Shown piece after piece: positions 274-8,158 of a stretch of 64,000 nucleotides of DNA. The position numbers were made by a program, and so were the translations under genes. The number at the start of each line of letters is the position of its first letter. Positions within the stretch are counted from its first letter, which is position 1. The notes under the pieces are model-generated. The model had not been told where the DNA came from. It saw only the letters and a list, made by a program, of their open reading frames with translations, and ran no database searches. This DNA comes from an uncultured Gemmatimonadota bacterium (GTDB lineage Bacteria > JAAXHH01), in assembly GCA_951812955.1 (NCBI GenBank), contig OX638340.1:1952001-2016000 (forward strand), given 5' to 3'.

Positions 274-1062
274 TTACAATGTATTACGGATCCTGTTCGC
301 TATACACTTGAATACCCATTCATTAGGATGGAGTTCATCATCCCAGAAATTCTTGTAATGACCTGGACTGTTACTAAGAAGATCACGAACATCTACGTAA
401 CGTACATAGTCATAGTTTACTGCCAACAACTGAAGCATTTCGTTGAACTTGTCTATCAGTACCTCCATCACCCTGGTAGCAAACCAAAGGTCATCGTGAC
501 TTTTTTTAATATTGTATCCCTTTTTCCTGAATACCGGATAGAGCCAAGGCCCCTTTACCTTTATCCAAAACTTGAACTTGCGTCCATCGGGAACTGGGTG
601 GCCATATCCATGGACGATTATCGGAATATCACTTTGGGGCCAATACACTAAACAAGCTCCCCTTATAACTTCGATAAGTTGCGAGTAGTAAGTACGAAGA
701 TAGCAGAATATCATTTTCTGGACTTCATTCGTGTCTAACGCACTATTTACATCTGATGCTGATGTACGATCGTTAAGCATTTTCTTCAGCTTCTTTGTCA
801 GATCATTGCCGCCACCGGAGAGGAGGACTGCTTTGGGTTTGCTATTGAGTTTGTGTAGTTTTTGTAGTTTTTTAAGAAGGGCTTTGTGTTGTTCTTGTGC
901 ATAGGCCATATCCTTGAGCGTGTCACCGTGTTTAGCTACACTTCTCACTTTGTATCCCATGCCCCTTAACCCCTCTAATACATCATCAGCTTGATTTGTA
1001 GAGTTTGGCAAATCGAACCATGAATCACCCTCCGCTACCAAGATTGGTTTTTGATTTGGCAT
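274..1062 (-). CDS. SGNH/GDSL-family hydrolase (lipase/esterase-like) in an AT-rich (~40% GC) islet
   Basis: Block I 'EGDSWFD' (GDS-x), block III 'SGGGNDL' and block V 'DDELHP' (DxxH) are present in the expected order. Composition is strongly atypical versus the ~65% GC of the rest of the window. Confidence 0.6.
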   Translation of the reverse strand: MPNQKPILVAEGDSWFDLPNSTNQADDVLEGLRGMGYKVRSVAKHGDTLKDMAYAQEQHKALLKKLQKLHKLNSKPKAVLLSGGGNDLTKKLKKMLNDRTSASDVNSALDTNEVQKMIFCYLRTYYSQLIEVIRGACLVYWPQSDIPIIVHGYGHPVPDGRKFKFWIKVKGPWLYPVFRKKGYNIKKSHDDLWFATRVMEVLIDKFNEMLQLLAVNYDYVRYVDVRDLLSNSPGHYKNFWDDELHPNEWVFKCIANRIRNTL

Positions 1063-1184: not shown

Positions 1185-1532
1185 TTAGTACAGATCGACC
1201 CGGAAGGCGCCTCGCGTCAAGGCCTCCTGCAGTCTCGTCTGGTGGCTGCGATGACGCGGATGTCCGATGATACTGCCCGGACGCTTCCCAAGGGACGATA
1301 GGTCTTCTCGGAGAGGACCCGCAGCGTGGATCGCCTTGGCGATCAGTTCCTTGCCGGCCCCCGTTTCGCCCGTGATCAATACGGGCATATCCTTTGATGC
1401 GTAACGGTAGGCTCTCGCCGGGATCCATTTCATCTCGTGGCTCCTGTGCTTGATCGCATCGAAGGCGCCGTGCGCTTCATGCCCTTGCGCTGGTTCCGGC
1501 GGATTCTGGCTCGTCATCAGGGAGTACGCCAT
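1185..1532 (-). pseudogene. Fragment of a sigma-54-dependent (NtrC-family AAA+) transcriptional activator, truncated and decayed
   Basis: The 115-aa ORF contains the Walker A region 'VLITGETGAGKELIAKAIH' of the sigma54-interaction domain. It has no N-terminal receiver/sensor domain. After the P-loop the sequence degenerates ('...GHPRHRSHQTRLQEALTRGAFR' loosely recalls ELFGHEKGAFTGA) and ends early. There is no C-terminal HTH. Confidence 0.45.
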
Positions 1533-1860
1533 GGTTGCTCCGGATTAAGGCAGGTAAACCTAGCAAAAATCGGACCCGGTATTTTCGTGTTTTTCATGTA
1601 AAGTGGTATGAATTACAATATGATGGAAAAAGAGTGACTTGTGTGTGAATTATCCGCTCAGCAAGAAGAATATTGCGCGAATTTTACGCATAGTGTATCA
1701 TATCGCCATCACGGCCAGCTCTCGATCGGCCTCCGGCGGGCATTCCAGCGCGTCCGCCCAACCTGAGCGTTTCACCCTCAGAAGGCGATCTATCCGGCCG
1801 GCCTCCGACGGGCGTTCCGGCGAGTCGACCTCCGGCCGCAGGAGCGCCGCATGCCGCAGG

Positions 1861-1899
1861 GATCACGGGCAAGGGTCACGGGCAAGGGTCACGGGAAGG
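1861..1899. repeat. Three tandem 13-bp direct repeats (GaTCACGGGCAAG / GGTCACGGGCAAG / GGTCACGGGAAGG) 30-70 bp upstream of the HK-RR fusion gene
   Basis: Read directly from the sequence. Further short direct repeats lie at 1729-1756/1800-1826 (GGCCTCCGrCGGGCrTTCC) and 1927-1937/1945-1955 (CGGTGAAGCGT). Confidence 0.7.
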
Positions 1900-1929
1900 A
1901 TGGATCTGTGACACGGAAAGGATGGACCG

Positions 1930-4305
1930 GTGAAGCGTGATACATCGGTGAAGCGTAAAGACGGACCGGGGCGGGAGATCGAGGCGCTGCGCGAACGCAT
2001 CTCGATGCTGAGCGCGGCAAGCCTGCGCATCAGCGCGAGCCTGGACCTGGAGACCGTCCTGCACGAGGTCATCAACAGCGCCCGCGCGCTGATCGAGGCT
2101 CGTTACGGCGGCATCGTCACCATCGACGAGTCCGGGCAGCCCCGGGACTTCATCACCTCCGGTTTCACCGACGCGGAGCACCGCCAAATGGCCGACTGGC
2201 CCGACGGGCCCAGGCTCTTCGAGCACTTCCGCGACCTCAAGGGCGTGCTGAGACTGCCGGATGCGCGCGCCTACGTGCGCTCGCTCGGCTTCGCCTCGGA
2301 CCGGCTGTCGTCCGGCACCTTCCTGGGCACCCCGATGCGCCATCGCGGCCTGCACGTCGGCAACTTCTATCTCGTCGAGAAGGAAGGCGGAGCGGAGTTC
2401 ACCAGCGAGGACGAGGAGATCCTGGTGCTGTTCGCCTCCCAGGCTGCGACGGCCATCGCCAATGCCCGCACGTACCAGGCCGAGCAGCGCGCCCGGGCCG
2501 ACCTGGAGGCCCTGGTCGAGACCTCGCCGGTGGGCGTCCTGGTCTTCGATGCCGGGACCGGCCGGCTCATGTCGTCCAATCAGGAGGCGAAGCGGATCGT
2601 GGAGGGCCTGCGCATGCCGGGCCGTCCCATGGAGGCGCTGCAGGAGGTGATCACCTGCCGGCGCGCCGACGGGCGCGAGATCGCACTGGAGAAGTTGCCC
2701 CTGTCGCAGGTGCTGAACCGCACCGAGACGGTCCGGGCCGAGGAGATGGTGCTCTCGGTCCCCGACGGACGAAGCGTCACGGCGCTGATCAATTCCACGC
2801 CGATCCACTCGGAGCAAGGCGCTGTCGTGTCCGTTGTGGTCACCATGCAGGACCTGGCGCCGCTACAGGAACTGGAGCGATTACGGGCGGAGTTCCTTGG
2901 CCTGGTGAGTCATGAGTTGCGCACCCCGCTCACGTCGATCAAGGGCTCGGCGGCCACGCTGCTGGATGCCGCCCCGAAACTCGACCCGGCGGAGATGCGC
3001 GAGTTCTGCCGCATCATCCTCTCGCAGGCCGATCACATGCGCGTCCTGATCAGCGACCTGCTGGACGCGGGCCGCATCGACACGGGCACGCTGTCGGTGA
3101 CGCCCGAGCCCTCCGAGGTCGCCGCCCTGGTGGACCGGGCGCGGACCACGTTCCAGAGCGGCGGCGGCAGGCACCCCGTACTGATCGACCTGCCGCCCGA
3201 TCTGCCACGGGTCATGGCCGACCGGCAGCGCATCGAACAAGTGCTGAACAACCTGTTCGCCAATGCCGCGCGGCACGCTCCCGAGTCCTCTCCCATCAGG
3301 GTCTCCGGGGCGCGCGACGGGGTGCATGTCGCGGTCACGGTACGCGACGAAGGCGCGGGAGTAGCGCCCGACCGGCTCCCGCATCTCTTTCGGAAATATG
3401 CCGGGCTCGAGGGCGGCGACCGCGAGTCCGGGGCTGCCGGCTCGGGGCTCGGTCTGGCCATCTGCAAAGGGCTGGTCGAAACTCACGGAGGGCGTATCCG
3501 GGCCGAAAGTCCGGGCATGGGCCAGGGCACGCGCATCACCTTCACGATCCCGGTAGCCGCCGAGGCCGCCGAGGCCGCCCGAGAGCCGGTTCGTACCGAC
3601 CCGCAAGACACCGGAGAAACTGGCGAGCCGACGCGCATCCTCGTGGTCGACGACGACCCGCAGACGCTACGCTACGTGCGCGAAGCGCTCACGGCGGCCG
3701 GCTACTCCGCGCTCGTGACCAGCAACCATGACGAACTGGCGAGCATTATACACGCCGAGCGACCCGAACTGGTCCTGCTGGACCTGCTGCTGCCCGGCAC
3801 GGACGGTATAGCGTTGATGGAACGCCTGCCCGAACTGGCCGAACTTCCGGTCATCTTCATCTCCGCCTACGGACGGGACGAGACCATCGCGCGGGCGCTC
3901 GATACCGGCGCCGCCGACTACCTCGTCAAGCCCTTCTCGACGACCGAGCTCGTGGCGCGGATCCGGGCGGCGCTGCACAGACGGGCCGATCCCGACCCCT
4001 TCGTGCTGGGCGAACTCGCCATCCACTACGATCGGCGAAGGGTGAGCACAGGCGGTGTACGGGTCGACCTCACCGCCACCGAGTATGAGCTGCTGCGCGT
4101 CCTCTCGCTCAACGCGGGACGGGTTTTGACCTTCGCCACCCTGATGCGCCAGGTCTGGGGTACGCGCGCCTACGCCAATCCGAAGCTCGTGCGCGCCTTC
4201 GTCAAGAAGCTCCGCCACAAGCTCGGCGACAATGCAGACAAGCCTATCTACATCTTCAACGAGCGCGGGGTCGGCTACCGAATGGCCCAGCCGGCCGAAT
4301 CGTAG
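1930..4305 (+). CDS. Hybrid sensor histidine kinase fused to a complete OmpR-type response regulator (GAF - PAS - HisKA - HATPase_c - REC - winged-helix Trans_reg_C)
   Basis: The H-box is 'LVSHELRTPLTSIKGSA'. ATPase motifs are 'NLFANAARH', 'VRDEGAGV' and 'GSGLGLAICKGLVE'. The receiver 'ILVVDDDPQ...LVLLDLLLPGTDG...YLVKPF' has the acidic pocket and the Lys. The C-terminus 'LTATEYELLRVLSLNAGRVLTFATLMRQVWG...YIFNERGVGYRM' is an OmpR/PhoB wHTH. A GTG start was chosen by the ORF track; an in-frame Met start further downstream is possible. Confidence 0.8.
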   Translation: MKRDTSVKRKDGPGREIEALRERISMLSAASLRISASLDLETVLHEVINSARALIEARYGGIVTIDESGQPRDFITSGFTDAEHRQMADWPDGPRLFEHFRDLKGVLRLPDARAYVRSLGFASDRLSSGTFLGTPMRHRGLHVGNFYLVEKEGGAEFTSEDEEILVLFASQAATAIANARTYQAEQRARADLEALVETSPVGVLVFDAGTGRLMSSNQEAKRIVEGLRMPGRPMEALQEVITCRRADGREIALEKLPLSQVLNRTETVRAEEMVLSVPDGRSVTALINSTPIHSEQGAVVSVVVTMQDLAPLQELERLRAEFLGLVSHELRTPLTSIKGSAATLLDAAPKLDPAEMREFCRIILSQADHMRVLISDLLDAGRIDTGTLSVTPEPSEVAALVDRARTTFQSGGGRHPVLIDLPPDLPRVMADRQRIEQVLNNLFANAARHAPESSPIRVSGARDGVHVAVTVRDEGAGVAPDRLPHLFRKYAGLEGGDRESGAAGSGLGLAICKGLVETHGGRIRAESPGMGQGTRITFTIPVAAEAAEAAREPVRTDPQDTGETGEPTRILVVDDDPQTLRYVREALTAAGYSALVTSNHDELASIIHAERPELVLLDLLLPGTDGIALMERLPELAELPVIFISAYGRDETIARALDTGAADYLVKPFSTTELVARIRAALHRRADPDPFVLGELAIHYDRRRVSTGGVRVDLTATEYELLRVLSLNAGRVLTFATLMRQVWGTRAYANPKLVRAFVKKLRHKLGDNADKPIYIFNERGVGYRMAQPAES

Positions 4306-4388
4306 ACACCTTCTGTTTCCCGGCAAGGCGAGCAGGACGCGAAGAGCGGAGATCAGAGTCCCTCAGGGAAGGCAAAAGTCCGCAGCCT

Positions 4389-5201
4389 TTAAACCCGCTT
4401 CTTCCGACCCACCAGGACCAGGTTCGCCGGCATTTTCTCAAGCGGCGCGCCGCCCTCCCAGTCCTGGTTCCCGTCACCGTACTCCTCCACGGCCAGGAGT
4501 TCGCATCCACTCTCGATCAGCGCGCGGATCATGTCCGAAACGGTCCAGTGGAATTCATAACTGGGGAGCGGACTGGGCGGTCCTTGGCGTCCTTGCGTAC
4601 CGGACGGCCCCGCACCCTCGGGCAGTTCCTCTGACCGGTCATAGGTAAAGGGACCGTGGTCGAAGTAATGATATTCCTGTTTCAGCGGCCCGGCGTCGAG
4701 TTTCCATAGCCTGCGGAACGGATGGTACTCGTTGACCATGAAGAGTCCGCCGTGTTTGAGAATCCGGATTCCCTCGCCGTAGTAGCGCTGCAGGTCGGAC
4801 ACCCAGACAGCAACGTGGCCTCCCGTGTAAACGATGTCGAAATGATCGTCCGGCAGTTCGTGCAGATCAGTCACGTCAGCCTGGAGAAACCGGATCGAGA
4901 GTCCAAGCTCACCCGCTCTTCCGGCGGCGATATCCAGCTGGGTCTGCGATATATCCACGGAGGTGACCCGCGCCCCGGCACCGGCCAGGGCAAAGGCCGC
5001 CAGGTTGTCTCCGCTGCCGAGCACGCAGACGGACCTTCCGGATACCTCGCCGAGGTATTTCAATTCGACGGCGTCCAGCACAAGATGGATGTTGTCCGGG
5101 ATGCTCCGCCAGTCCACCCTGGCGTCGATCTCCGCCTGCCATCCGGCGGAAACGGCGTCCCAGCCCCTGCGATTCGCCTCGTGCATGGGATGCTGGCTCA
5201 T
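4389..5201 (-). CDS. Class I SAM-dependent methyltransferase
   Basis: Motif I 'VCVLGSGDNLAAFALAGAGARVTSVDIS' is present, along with a post-I acidic residue and an overall Rossmann MTase layout. Confidence 0.6.
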   Translation of the reverse strand: MSQHPMHEANRRGWDAVSAGWQAEIDARVDWRSIPDNIHLVLDAVELKYLGEVSGRSVCVLGSGDNLAAFALAGAGARVTSVDISQTQLDIAAGRAGELGLSIRFLQADVTDLHELPDDHFDIVYTGGHVAVWVSDLQRYYGEGIRILKHGGLFMVNEYHPFRRLWKLDAGPLKQEYHYFDHGPFTYDRSEELPEGAGPSGTQGRQGPPSPLPSYEFHWTVSDMIRALIESGCELLAVEEYGDGNQDWEGGAPLEKMPANLVLVGRKKRV

Positions 5202-5374
5202 TTACTTAAATCCTCCCAGCGACATCGATCCGCCCAGAGCTCTCCCGATTCAGGCACGCTGGTTCAGGGCCCTCCCGGTTCAGGCTCTCCCGCTCAGGGC
5301 CCGCTCGAGTCAGGGTCCGCCTGGCTTGACCCAGGTACTCCCGACTCAGGCACGCAGCCTCAGGTCCGCGCGGC

Positions 5375-6157
5375 TCAGACTCTCCTGGCTACCCACACTT
5401 GCTCATGTCCATGCCGGAACGGTCCGCGTCGGAAGTCGCCGTATAGTGCCTCGACTTCGTAGCCACATACTTCGAGGAGGTACTGCATTTCGAAACGGTG
5501 CACGTAGCGCAGGTGTAGCGGGGTGGCAGTCTTCGAAAGTACACGGCCCTCGTCGTCCACTTCCTCGAAGAACCGGTGTTCCTCCAGCGTCTGCTCCAAC
5601 GGATCGTACCGGCGCGTATCCGATACCATGACGCGGCGTCCCGTTTCAGGATGCACGATCGATTCCATGTAATTGATGGTACCGGAAGGTCTCGACATGT
5701 ACGCCGCGATGATCTCGATGCTCGGATCGAAGATGTTGAACACCAGGCGCCCTTGCTCCGTCAGGTGTTCTCGGATGCGGGTCAAGGCCCGCCGCTGGTC
5801 GTCGGGGGTCATCATGTGAAGGAACGCGCGGTACGGTATGATGGCCAGCGGGAAACGCCGTTCCAGGCTGAATGTCCGCATATCGCCTTCGACGATCTGA
5901 ATGCGCCGCTGTGTATCGTCCGGCAGCGCGTCGATCTTCCGACGCGCCACATCCAGCATCGCCGGCGCCCGATCCAGTCCGACGATGGACGTACCCGACT
6001 CGGCGATCGGGATCGTGATCCGGCCGGTTCCGCAACCGATTTCCAGCACGGGGCCGTCCGCCCTGGCGGCTTCTTCCACGTAGAATGCCTCGTCGCCTTC
6101 GAGCCCCGTCGAGTAGCTGTCGTATATCCCGGCGTCCGTCCTGTCGTATTCTGACAT
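5375..6157 (-). CDS. Class I SAM-dependent methyltransferase (second, adjacent paralog-like)
   Basis: Motif I is 'VLEIGCGTGRITIPIAESGTSIVGLDRAPAML', and motif II 'IQIVEGDM' is present. Confidence 0.6.
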   Translation of the reverse strand: MSEYDRTDAGIYDSYSTGLEGDEAFYVEEAARADGPVLEIGCGTGRITIPIAESGTSIVGLDRAPAMLDVARRKIDALPDDTQRRIQIVEGDMRTFSLERRFPLAIIPYRAFLHMMTPDDQRRALTRIREHLTEQGRLVFNIFDPSIEIIAAYMSRPSGTINYMESIVHPETGRRVMVSDTRRYDPLEQTLEEHRFFEEVDDEGRVLSKTATPLHLRYVHRFEMQYLLEVCGYEVEALYGDFRRGPFRHGHEQVWVARRV

Positions 6158-6383
6158 GTCCTGCCCTCCCGGAAAACTGGCTTTATCTTTGCCAAATCAC
6201 TTGTATGCGCAACGTCATTGCTACAGCACACCATGCTGGATGCAGGATACCCGCGATCCACTTCCAGCGTACCGAACTCGTTATACCAAATTATACCGGT
6301 TGATTTCGCTATTGTCCCGGTTTTACTTCAGTTGAAGTCTGCCCAATTGCCTACATCAGTCACGCCACGGCCAAGGATCATTT

Positions 6384-7346
6384 ATGCCAGACCGACAACG
6401 CATTGTAATACCCGGTGACGATCCGCCCCAGATGCAGGGATCACCCCACCTGGAACGCCTTGAGGCTTACGGAGAAGTCGTCCTGTACACCGATCGTCCC
6501 GAGACTTCTGATGAGAAAATCGAGCGGGTCAAGGGCGCCGGGGTGATGATCAATTCCCGGGGACTCGTCAAATGGCCCGGTGACGTCCTGCGTTCGCTGC
6601 CGGATCTCCGCATGATCGCGACTTGTTCGATCGGCGTCGACAGTTTCGATCTTGTCGCGGCGCGGGAATGCGGCATCGCCATATCCAACCAACCGGGACG
6701 GACGGCGCCGGTCGTGGCGGAACATACCTTCGGCCTGATGTTCGCCCTCGCGAAGAGAGCGGCGTACTTCACGGGCGCCATGAAAGCCGGCCAATGGCCG
6801 CGACTGGACGCCTACTACCTAAAGGGGAAGACGCTCGGGGTCATCGGAACGGGTCCAATCGGATCGGAGTTGGCGAAGCTGGCGGGCAGCGTGGGGATGG
6901 ACGTGATCGCCTGGACGTACAACCCGTCGGACGAAAGGGCCAGGGAGATCGGGGCGGCCTACGTGGAACTCGACGAACTATTGAGCAGGTCGGACGTGGT
7001 GTCGCTGCATGTCAGGCTTACGGAGGATAGCAGGCACATGATCGACAGTGCATCGCTGGGAAGCATGAAACCGGGCGCGCTGCTGATCAACTGCGGCCGG
7101 GGAGGCCTGGTGGATACGGACGCGCTGGTGGAAGCGCTGAGCTCGGGGCATCTGGGCGGCGCAGCCCTGGACGTCTTCGAGGAAGAGCCCCTGCCCGCGG
7201 ATCATCCCCTGCTCGGCATGGAGCAGGTCGTGCTCACCCCGCACTGCGCGGACATGACGCCCGAAGGGGTCGAACTGCTCAACGAAGGCGCGGTGGACAA
7301 CGTCATCGCATTTCTCGAAGGTCGTCCCCGGAACCTGGTGGTCTGA
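6384..7346 (+). CDS. D-isomer-specific 2-hydroxyacid dehydrogenase family (phosphoglycerate dehydrogenase/hydroxypyruvate reductase-like)
   Basis: The NAD-binding motif is 'GKTLGVIGTGPIGSELAKLAG'. The catalytic region is 'LINCGRGGLVDTDALVEAL ... LDVFEEEP ... LTPHCA' (His/Glu/Arg triad context). Confidence 0.75.
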   Translation: MPDRQRIVIPGDDPPQMQGSPHLERLEAYGEVVLYTDRPETSDEKIERVKGAGVMINSRGLVKWPGDVLRSLPDLRMIATCSIGVDSFDLVAARECGIAISNQPGRTAPVVAEHTFGLMFALAKRAAYFTGAMKAGQWPRLDAYYLKGKTLGVIGTGPIGSELAKLAGSVGMDVIAWTYNPSDERAREIGAAYVELDELLSRSDVVSLHVRLTEDSRHMIDSASLGSMKPGALLINCGRGGLVDTDALVEALSSGHLGGAALDVFEEEPLPADHPLLGMEQVVLTPHCADMTPEGVELLNEGAVDNVIAFLEGRPRNLVV

Positions 7347-7403
7347 GTGGTCTGCGTGGTCTGAGCAATCCGCGGTACGCAGTGGTCCGAAAACCGGTAC
7401 CGG

Positions 7404-7805
7404 TCACTCCGGCGCCCGGTGCCGCAACTCCCGGCCCTTGTCCGGGGTGGGGTCCTCGACCATACCATACATCTGCCGGCCCTCGTGGTCCTCGGGAAGA
7501 TACTCCGTGATCGGCAGTCCCTCGGGTGTCACGAATAGCAGGCAGTGACAGTACTTCCAGATCTTCATCTCGTCGCAGGCGCAGACCCATTCGCGGCTGC
7601 GTTCCAGTTCGGCCTTCTTGTCGGGATAGAAATTGCACGGGCACAGGGGCCGTCCCAGTTCGTCCACGTGGGCGGCGAGCCCCTTGACCACGGAATCCTT
7701 CACTTCCGCGTTCGGATGGGGCGAGGTGCCGGTTTTCTCCCAATACTTCTCGCAGTATTTCTCCATGCGCCGCATGCTTTTCTCGGAAGGTTGCTGTTCG
7801 TTCAT
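7404..7805 (-). CDS. Ferredoxin-thioredoxin reductase catalytic (beta) subunit-like protein
   Basis: The spacing 'LCPCNFY...WVCACDEMKIWKYCHCLLF' reproduces the CPC / CxC / CHC signature of FTR catalytic subunits (FeThRed_B). Size is 133 aa. Confidence 0.65.
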   Translation of the reverse strand: MNEQQPSEKSMRRMEKYCEKYWEKTGTSPHPNAEVKDSVVKGLAAHVDELGRPLCPCNFYPDKKAELERSREWVCACDEMKIWKYCHCLLFVTPEGLPITEYLPEDHEGRQMYGMVEDPTPDKGRELRHRAPE

Positions 7806-8061
7806 TTACCGCTCCTTGTATGGGTAACGCTTCCCGGTACTCCTACAGATCGTCGGCCCTTTCAATCTGAATATAATCTATTCTTACCTCCCCTTCATGT
7901 CAATCGGTCCGTGCCAGGATCCGTGGAATGACAGCGCCCTGAAAAACCGCGCCGGGAATTGCGAATCCGCAGAACGATTTGCAGTCCGCGAAGCCGACGA
8001 GTCGTCGAAAATCCCCGCCGACAGACTCGTCGTCAAAAAACCAATTTTTTGTGGATTTGTA

Positions 8062-8090
8062 TTGACTTTGTTAGCGACGCGGCATATCGT
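8062..8090 (+). promoter_or_regulatory. Candidate sigma70-type promoter for the act operon (TTGACT-N17-TATCGT); an inverted repeat (7994-8034) and TTTGTCGA direct repeats lie nearby
   Basis: Sequence match only, ~70 bp upstream of actA. No experimental support. Confidence 0.25.
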
Positions 8091-8158
8091 GTACAACTGT
8101 TTGTCGAATACCGTTCATTTGTCGAGAAACGTAACAGAAAGAGATAGAACGAGTTCTT

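Follow-up and report, generated by a model that had tools for sequence, protein, structure and literature searches.

Work on two-component systems in which kinase, receiver and DNA-binding output form one polypeptide has so far been confined essentially to Bacteroides, where the proteins are membrane-bound with an AraC-type output. According to two reports (PMC11253607, PMC3404733), these hybrid two-component systems (HTCSs), for example the BT4663-type regulators of polysaccharide utilisation loci, have no separate cognate regulator, occur in several copies per genome and usually lie beside the genes they control. We analysed a 64,000-nucleotide stretch from an uncultured Gemmatimonadota bacterium (JAAXHH01; GenBank assembly GCA_951812955.1, contig OX638340.1, positions 1,952,001 to 2,016,000 of the forward strand), called the window hereafter and numbered from its first letter. 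A gene at 1930..4305 on its plus strand starts with GTG and encodes a fused two-component protein of 791 amino acids with six Pfam domains. Its family shares with HTCSs the single-polypeptide design, the absence of a separate cognate regulator, the multiple copies per genome and, presumably, the position beside controlled genes. HTCSs, however, sit in the inner membrane, bind glycans through a periplasmic sensor and act through an AraC-type helix-turn-helix (HTH), whereas the fused protein is soluble, carries GAF and PAS domains and ends in an OmpR-type winged HTH (wHTH). Over their whole length the two proteins are not homologues, and HTCSs are confined to one phylum whereas the fused family crosses phyla. 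HTCSs are the functionally closest known systems, but the fused protein, lacking a membrane or periplasmic sensor and an AraC output, is not one of them.

The literature searched gave only the Bacteroides AraC-type HTCSs as characterised systems, and no paper on an OmpR-type single-polypeptide system or on the present family was found in it, in line with an earlier sequence-only reading of this gene that had called OmpR-type versions poorly characterised. NCBI names family members simply "response regulator". With its invariant catalytic residues, the soluble OmpR-type protein offers a second, independent case for the control of a tethered receiver and DNA-binding domain.

All six Pfam domains scored above their gathering thresholds, in the order GAF-PAS-HisKA-HATPase-REC-wHTH that the sequence-only reading had proposed. 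A GAF domain (Pfam GAF_2, 41 bits; aa 38-177, 2041..2460) is followed by a PAS domain (30.1 bits, gathering score 22.6; aa 191-308, 2500..2853), a HisKA, or dimerization and histidine phosphotransfer (DHp), domain (60.4 bits; aa 319-386, 2884..3087) with the phospho-acceptor His328 at codon 2911-2913, and a HATPase_c catalytic domain (94 bits; aa 431-543, 3220..3558). A variable Ala/Glu/Pro-rich linker (aa 544-569, 3559..3636), the least conserved segment of the protein, leads to the receiver (REC; Response_reg, 91.8 bits; aa 570-679, 3637..3966) with the phospho-acceptor Asp618 at codon 3781-3783. The OmpR/PhoB-type wHTH (Trans_reg_C, 69.8 bits over profile positions 3-77 of 77; aa 711-785, 4060..4284) follows, all of these segments lying on the plus strand. 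The profile search therefore gave the boundaries of all domains, including a recognisable wHTH, and placed Response_reg and Trans_reg_C in-frame in one open reading frame (ORF). The string AAEAAEAAREPVRTDPQDTGETGEP, which had been picked out as a PA-rich joint between the HATPase and receiver domains, sits within aa 544-569 with the frame uninterrupted; the linker is flexible, and its predicted local distance difference test score (pLDDT) falls below 50 in an AlphaFold (AF2) monomer model. In that model (mean pLDDT 75; predicted template modelling score, pTM, 0.35) the domains are confident and their arrangement is not. No transmembrane segment was found in the 791-aa protein, the highest Kyte-Doolittle 19-mer average being 1.28, and the view of a cytoplasmic protein is upheld. 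The GTG start aligns with the ATG of loci L002 and L003 and the TTG of L001 in the alignment of the closest loci. An in-frame TGA at 1909-1911 closes the frame; therefore, no start lies further upstream. The sequence GGAAAGGA at 1915-1922, about 8 nt 5' of the GTG, is a plausible Shine-Dalgarno (SD) sequence.

Kinase core and REC-wHTH are ordinary members of the superfamilies to which MtrB/MtrA, KdpD/KdpE, PhoR/PhoB and SenX3/RegX3 belong; the fused protein differs by joining both partners and by lacking a membrane sensor. Its REC-wHTH part aligns over the full length with PDB structures of MtrA, KdpE, RegX3, PrrA and BaeR (E-values of 1e-30 to 1e-35), the match to MtrA 2gwr reaching 1e-35 over aa 568-789. 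No NCBIfam equivalog threshold was reached (MtrA 164 vs 300 bits, KdpE 138 vs 325, KdpD 115 vs 1123), and the similarity to KdpD covers the kinase core only, the N-terminal sensor and Usp domains being absent. The phosphorelay hybrid kinases ArcB, TorS, LuxQ and BarA, which are among the NCBIfam partial matches, also combine a histidine kinase with a C-terminal REC through a flexible linker. However, their last domain is REC or HPt, from which the phosphate is relayed further, whereas here REC is followed by its own DNA-binding domain, and the Pfam search of the 791-aa protein gave neither an HPt domain nor an AraC-type HTH (HTH_AraC/HTH_18). Both halves of the protein are genuine: a class I HisKA kinase and, fused to it, an OmpR-family regulator.

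The fusion could in principle be an artefact, that is, separate histidine kinase and response regulator genes joined by a sequencing or assembly error, or by a missed stop or frameshift, in the linker at 3559-3636. The linker is of low complexity, weakly conserved and modelled with low confidence, and the nearest relatives in cultured bacteria are adjacent but separate kinase and regulator genes. Against this, a word-indexed protein search over clusters at 90% identity recovered more than 120 independent clusters, 70-98% identical to the query, of about 785 aa and with the same Pfam list, many of them on contigs of 0.1-6 Mb. An exhaustive search over 1.84 billion representatives of clusters at 50% identity added about 100 further clusters that align in one stretch over query residues of about 10-790 at 37-63% identity; it also revealed longer variants with N-terminal extensions, up to 1327 aa. 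A scan of one genome per species yielded 172 relatives, of which the best 80 were used as loci (numbered with the prefix L). These 80 are full length and 60-86% identical, and many genome copies lie on contigs of 2-7 Mb labelled as chromosomes. Together with the window they give 81 sequences, 80 of which keep a single open frame through a linker that varies in sequence and length; only L002 carries an in-frame stop within the gene. Because of the more than 120 independent clusters and the frame kept open in 80 of the 81 sequences, an artefact is excluded, and the probability left to it is negligible; the comparative data refute it. The same data indicate that the fusion is an old, diversified and selected architecture. 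The sequence-only reading had also called it uncommon. This holds for cultured organisms, as all of the best 80 loci are uncultured metagenome-assembled genomes (MAGs) and no family member was found among PLSDB plasmids, where the best matches were split KdpD/KdpE-like pairs of 32-40% identity. It does not hold for metagenomes, given the roughly 100 full-length clusters at 50% identity.

Residue conservation was counted over the 80 family members. His328 and Glu329 of the H-box, Asn445 of the N-box and Gly475, Gly477 and Gly506 of the G-box are invariant, and Asp473 and Gly508 are each kept in 79. In the receiver, Asp575 and Asp576 of the acidic pocket, the phospho-acceptor Asp618, and Ser645, Tyr664 and Lys667 are likewise invariant, with Asp574 present in 79. 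The whole-gene pairwise ratio of nonsynonymous to synonymous substitution rates (dN/dS) is 0.28-0.42. In the functional domains it is mostly 0.1-0.5 (0.40-0.46 in the wHTH), the highest value being 0.67 for HATPase_c in one pair. The linker has the lowest majority identity of all segments (0.39); its dN/dS is 0.33 between the window and L001, 1.6-1.9 in two of the three other pairs and undefined in the remaining one. These ratios indicate that all domains are under purifying selection and that only the kinase-receiver linker is relaxed.

The GAF domain has homologues in haem-GAF kinases of Mycobacterium that sense redox state and gases and are likewise soluble. It is homologous to GAF-A of DevS (DosS) and DosT, matching PDB entries 2y79, 2w3d and 2vzw over aa 38-184 with E-values of 7e-20 to 5e-15. 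DevS combines two GAF domains with a HisKA_3 core and has a partner of NarL type, DevR, as a separate protein, whereas the fused protein has GAF and PAS, a HisKA core and an attached OmpR-type output. Haem sensing as in DevS was considered and rejected. The proximal haem ligand of DevS, which we take to be His149 in its PPYHPP motif, aligns with Arg125 of the window protein, and the family has Arg (42), Leu (13), Pro (12) or Ala (5) at this position. Another histidine, His138, is conserved in 75 of the 80 members. Judging from the residues aligned with the DevS ligand, the cue is probably sensed other than through a canonical His-ligated haem.

The family extends across distant host groups. 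The labels of the 80 MAGs include Latescibacterota, Gemmatimonadota, Acidobacteriota (Terriglobia, Vicinamibacterales, Thermoanaerobaculia), Alpha- and Gammaproteobacteria, Nitrospirales, Nitrospinota, Binatia, Spirochaetia, Chloroflexi and "Deltaproteobacteria". One clade with at least 78% protein identity holds Acidobacteriota, Alphaproteobacteria, Gammaproteobacteria and Binatia; cross-phylum pairs within it are 87-91% identical, and a pair from Terriglobia and Thermoanaerobaculia is 95% identical. The synonymous divergence (dS) is 0.09 between Terriglobia and Thermoanaerobaculia, 0.17 between Acidobacteriota and Xanthomonadales, 0.23 between Alphaproteobacteria and Binatia, and 0.25 between the window and a Latescibacterota MAG. 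Vertical descent across phyla would have saturated dS, yet it is only 0.09-0.25; therefore, these values point to recent transfer, and they indicate that the gene has recently been exchanged between phyla and classes. DNA homology between phyla generally runs from 200-550 bp upstream of the gene to its stop codon or just after it. The GC content of the gene is about 0.70-0.73 almost whatever the host and nearly always above that of the flanks; the window copy has 0.68 (0.86 at third codon positions, GC3) against 0.60 for the window. No family member was found on viral contigs.

The window encodes a housekeeping protein similar to ActB of alternative complex III (ACIII) that is 90-91% identical to proteins of Gemmatimonadota MAGs; therefore, the host is placed there, and on this evidence the window copy sits in a Gemmatimonadota-like chromosome. 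The fused copies of two of those Gemmatimonadota relatives, however, are only about 72% identical to it, and the L007 copy lies in a different context, whereas its nearest relative (87%) is labelled Latescibacterota. Several copies may occur per genome: OZ253547.1 has four, and at least nine other genomes have two each. Signs of turnover were seen as well, namely truncated N-terminal fragments beside full copies in L016 (8001-8270), L020 (10686-11024) and L050 (16393-16965), a tandem pair in L036 (8001-12903) and the in-frame stop of L002.

The carriers appear to be sponge- or coral-associated, an attribution based on MAG names rather than on sample metadata. Poriferihabitaceae, bins with the prefixes IRC, COS and RHO, which we take to denote sponge or coral origin, and isolates named by universally unique identifiers (UUIDs) all point to sponge and coral holobionts, and these taxon names recur in genome notes and holobiont papers on sponges. 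The low dS values across phyla and classes thus reveal a shared, actively exchanged regulatory gene pool in apparent sponge and coral symbionts.

Upstream of the gene, a short AT-rich island is the sole DNA that can be aligned between the window and its relatives L001-L003. In 16 aligned loci, the AT-rich island contains a TTGTAAT block and a GTGTGAC box; after 35 bp come two to four tandem 11-bp units with a CGCGAAT(T) core, then a GC-rich leader and a strong SD with ATG. The spacing between the G(T/A)GTGAC box and the repeats is the same in L001, L012, L017, L020, L027 and others. In the window, on the plus strand, the operator-like island with 11-bp-phased units lies at 1643..1697, has GAAT cores at 1647, 1668 and 1679, and is shared by L001-L003 and by the distant cross-phylum clade. 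It contains the 19-mer AAGAATATTGCGCGAATTT at 1666-1684, and a GAGTGAC box (1632..1638) lies 35 bp upstream of its AGAAT repeat at 1667. The operators of PhoB, OmpR and KdpE classically have this geometry, with direct repeats of about 11 bp in tandem. The pattern GAAT-N7-GAAT occurs at 0.47 per kb in the 450 bp 5' of family genes and at 0.009 per kb elsewhere in the loci, an enrichment of about 50-fold. The extent of the alignments indicates that the conserved island has been co-transferred with the gene. Further operator copies in the window were sought and rejected, as the 19-mer is unique in the 64 kb and a looser CGAAT-N6-CGAAT pattern occurs at chance level.

A putative promoter, TTTTCA-17-TACAAT at 1591..1619 (plus strand), emerged from a consensus scan for sigma-70 sites, which found three against 0.5 expected; it aligns with the conserved TTGTAAT block of the other loci. 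Transcription from it would place the repeats downstream of the start, implying repression. The GC-rich leader (1700..1929, plus strand), which includes the SD, carries lineage-specific repeats in the form of nested duplications. A 72-nt repeat is present twice, with 28-nt copies 72 nt apart (1727-1754 and 1799-1826; single copy in the strain variant L081), a 13-nt unit occurs in triplicate (1856-1895), and the region of SD and start is duplicated as a 22-nt unit (1890-1911 and 1912-1933), the first copy of which ends in the in-frame TGA. A cis-regulatory RNA in the leader was considered and rejected, because there was no Rfam match and no RNAalifold consensus structure, and the middle of the leader is absent in some loci.

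No universally conserved neighbour or operon partner was found across the 80 loci. However, in roughly 30 of them the divergent gene directly upstream encodes a large secreted protein or lipoprotein, of hundreds to more than 2,500 aa, with fn3, cadherin, Big_9, PKD, He_PIG, Calx-beta, LRR, M64/M66 peptidase or autotransporter domains. In the cross-phylum clade, the conserved DNA extends to the SD and first codons of this divergent partner gene. A profile of a common N-terminal module (…LVSN…QAFTTG…) with neighbouring Ig-like repeats matched 17 loci, in 15 of which the matching gene is upstream and divergent, a figure that describes giant repeat proteins generally, as the hidden Markov model (HMM) had drifted into the Ig-like repeats. 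The 15 loci span Gemmatimonadota, Nitrospirales, Vicinamibacterales, Alphaproteobacteria and the cross-phylum clades. Giant genes with the module lie on the minus strand at 4105-7554 in L015, 4000-7449 in L006 and 4293-7742 in L017, among others. The module itself, of about 200 aa (…TLVSN…QAFTTG…), has no Pfam match and precedes Ig-like, fn3 and cadherin repeats; it may be an undescribed domain.

The spread across phyla, the several copies per genome, the operator-like island that is transferred along with the gene and the association with giant surface-protein genes in divergent orientation go beyond the sequence-only reading. Overall, we regard it as rather probable that the family forms a soluble, self-contained His328-Asp618-wHTH circuit that regulates itself through the GAAT repeats, controls the divergent giant gene where one is present, and owes its transfer to its self-sufficiency. 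In this mechanism, an N-terminal coiled coil, the DevS-like GAF and the PAS domain would sense an intracellular cue. The HisKA/HATPase core, presumably dimeric as in other kinases of its class, would autophosphorylate His328, and Asp618 of the tethered receiver would take up the phosphoryl group within the same polypeptide or dimer. Once activated, REC-wHTH would bind the tandem 11-bp direct repeats with GAAT cores in the AT-rich island 5' of its own gene, and binding would set the transcription of this gene and, where present, of the divergent giant gene for an fn3/cadherin/Ig-type surface protein. The window copy is an orphan that has the operator island but lacks the giant partner. Sensor, kinase, regulator and operator form a single travelling unit of about 2.7 kb that needs no cognate partner, so the module would be readily transferred; it has spread recently between phyla of apparent sponge and coral bacteria and has multiplied within genomes.

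More tentatively, the family could be a habitat-specific "plug-and-play" one-gene circuit with its own operator, passed between phyla in sponge and coral holobionts and controlling giant adhesins of eukaryotic-like type (fn3, cadherin, Ig, LRR) through which the bacteria contact their host, a possible reading that we consider doubtful for the present. If it is true, fusion would be what makes the circuit transferable, as a recipient need not acquire a cognate partner alongside it or guard that partner against cross-talk. That giant fn3/cadherin/Ig proteins are encoded beside the gene time and again marks the family as a candidate regulator of the "eukaryotic-like" proteins, whose part in host interaction has long been suspected; no regulator of such proteins turned up in the literature searched. 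The architecture alone would be a moderate curiosity; it is the cross-phylum spread, the portable operator and the adhesin-like giants that make follow-up worthwhile. In vitro tests should be easy, given the lack of a membrane segment and the short candidate operator. For engineering, the gene offers a naturally occurring sensor-to-promoter module that is portable and self-contained.

Several observations weigh against these interpretations. At the protein level, the AF2 monomer, with its pTM of 0.35, is uninformative on whether REC reaches the DHp domain. HisKA kinases are known for an E/DxxT/N phosphatase motif next to the phospho-acceptor His, and the window H-box reads HELRT with Thr332 at H+4 (codon 2923-2925). 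In the family, however, the H+4 residue is Ala in 44 members, Glu in 13, Val in 12 and Thr in only 11 of the 80, so that signalling kinetics may be unusual. At the DNA level, GAAT repeats occur in clades with the predicted recognition helix xVRA(F/Y)VK(K/R)LR and are absent where it reads VRIFVRN or VVRTLVKK, a correlation confounded by phylogeny. Alternative repeats were sought in clades with other recognition helices and none was convincing, and a strict sigma-70 scan gave a promoter only in the window, with none in L017 or L012. As for the target, most loci have no giant partner and the window copy has none anywhere in the 64 kb; the partners are modular, 30-70% identical in local, non-collinear segments, compared with 79-95% for the regulator. 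The breadth of the module profile and the reliance on MAG names for the habitat count on the same side, and the loci are not phylogenetically independent.

The H+4 residue also bears on the role of the receiver. Ala, Glu or Val in 69 of the 80 members suggests that most of them lack normal phosphatase activity on their own receiver, and it suggests a non-standard phosphate flow. REC might serve as a sink for phosphate, as an autoinhibitory domain or as a relay intermediate for a separate partner, with the wHTH constitutive or otherwise employed and no closed His-Asp-DNA circuit. Most hybrid kinases use REC in a relay, which fits such a role. So does the finding that DNA binding by Bacteroides HTCSs is governed by an inhibitory interdomain interaction (PMC11253607). 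In opposition to this, the fused protein has no HPt domain and no conserved response regulator or HPt gene nearby, its REC-wHTH aligns full length with MtrA, KdpE, RegX3 and PrrA, and the activation residues Ser645, Tyr664 and Lys667 are invariant. We therefore judge it unlikely that the receiver does not drive the wHTH, and prefer phosphotransfer from His328 to a receiver that controls the attached DNA-binding domain.

Another explanation concerns the spread of the gene, which could be cargo or a regulatory part of an unrecognised mobile element. Its distribution would then be that of the element, and the giant neighbours would be coincidental, since variable islands are rich in such genes. 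The multiple copies, truncated fragments and tandem pair would suit a mobile element, as would a GC content atypical for the hosts and the IS21 IstB-like and DDE transposase genes near some copies. The window copy also borders a strain-variable island, marked by a low-GC lipase gene and a remnant of a sigma54-dependent activator, and in L081 by an MmeI system. Yet no transposase, integrase or other gene is kept beside the family, no terminal repeats were seen, and no members were detected on viral contigs or PLSDB plasmids. As a rule, homology breaks off with the stop codon on one side and, on the other, within the regulatory island or at the first codons of the partner. Purifying selection in all domains and the bias toward an upstream, divergent partner (15 of 17 loci) likewise argue against mere cargo. 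We consider this explanation improbable, and favour a regulatory module that is transferred together with its own operator.

The surroundings of the window copy vary between strains. L081 is a strain variant whose fused protein is 98% identical, and its homology with the window begins at 1461, inside the sigma54-activator remnant (1185-1532, minus strand). Of the 168 positions of the AAA+ domain, this remnant of 115 aa retains 3-47 alone, its regulatory and DNA-binding domains being absent; because the homology of L081 starts within it, the remnant marks the edge of the strain-variable island. Further upstream, the window has a GDSL-like lipase gene (274-1062, minus strand) whose GC content is 0.42, compared with 0.60 for the whole window. 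L081 lacks this gene, which is probably a recent insertion. In L081, two DUF1353 genes and an MmeI restriction-modification gene lie upstream of the fused gene instead.

Just downstream, two genes for class I S-adenosylmethionine (SAM)-dependent methyltransferases (4389-5201 and 5375-6157, both minus strand) are convergent with the fused gene and are kept in L081; no functional link between the two and the fused gene was evident. The segment with the fused gene and the first methyltransferase gene (1799-5278) shows 93% DNA identity with L081, and the adjacent housekeeping block from the second methyltransferase gene to ACIII (5359-12389) shows 84%. The difference suggests that the segment could have been recently recombined or replaced. 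The ACIII-like operon lies at 8159-11868 and onwards on the plus strand. It encodes a multihaem cytochrome c (ActA-like, 8159-8827) and the ActB-like molybdopterin/Fe-S subunit of 1004 aa, to which a protein encoded on a 3.8-Mb contig shows 100% identity.

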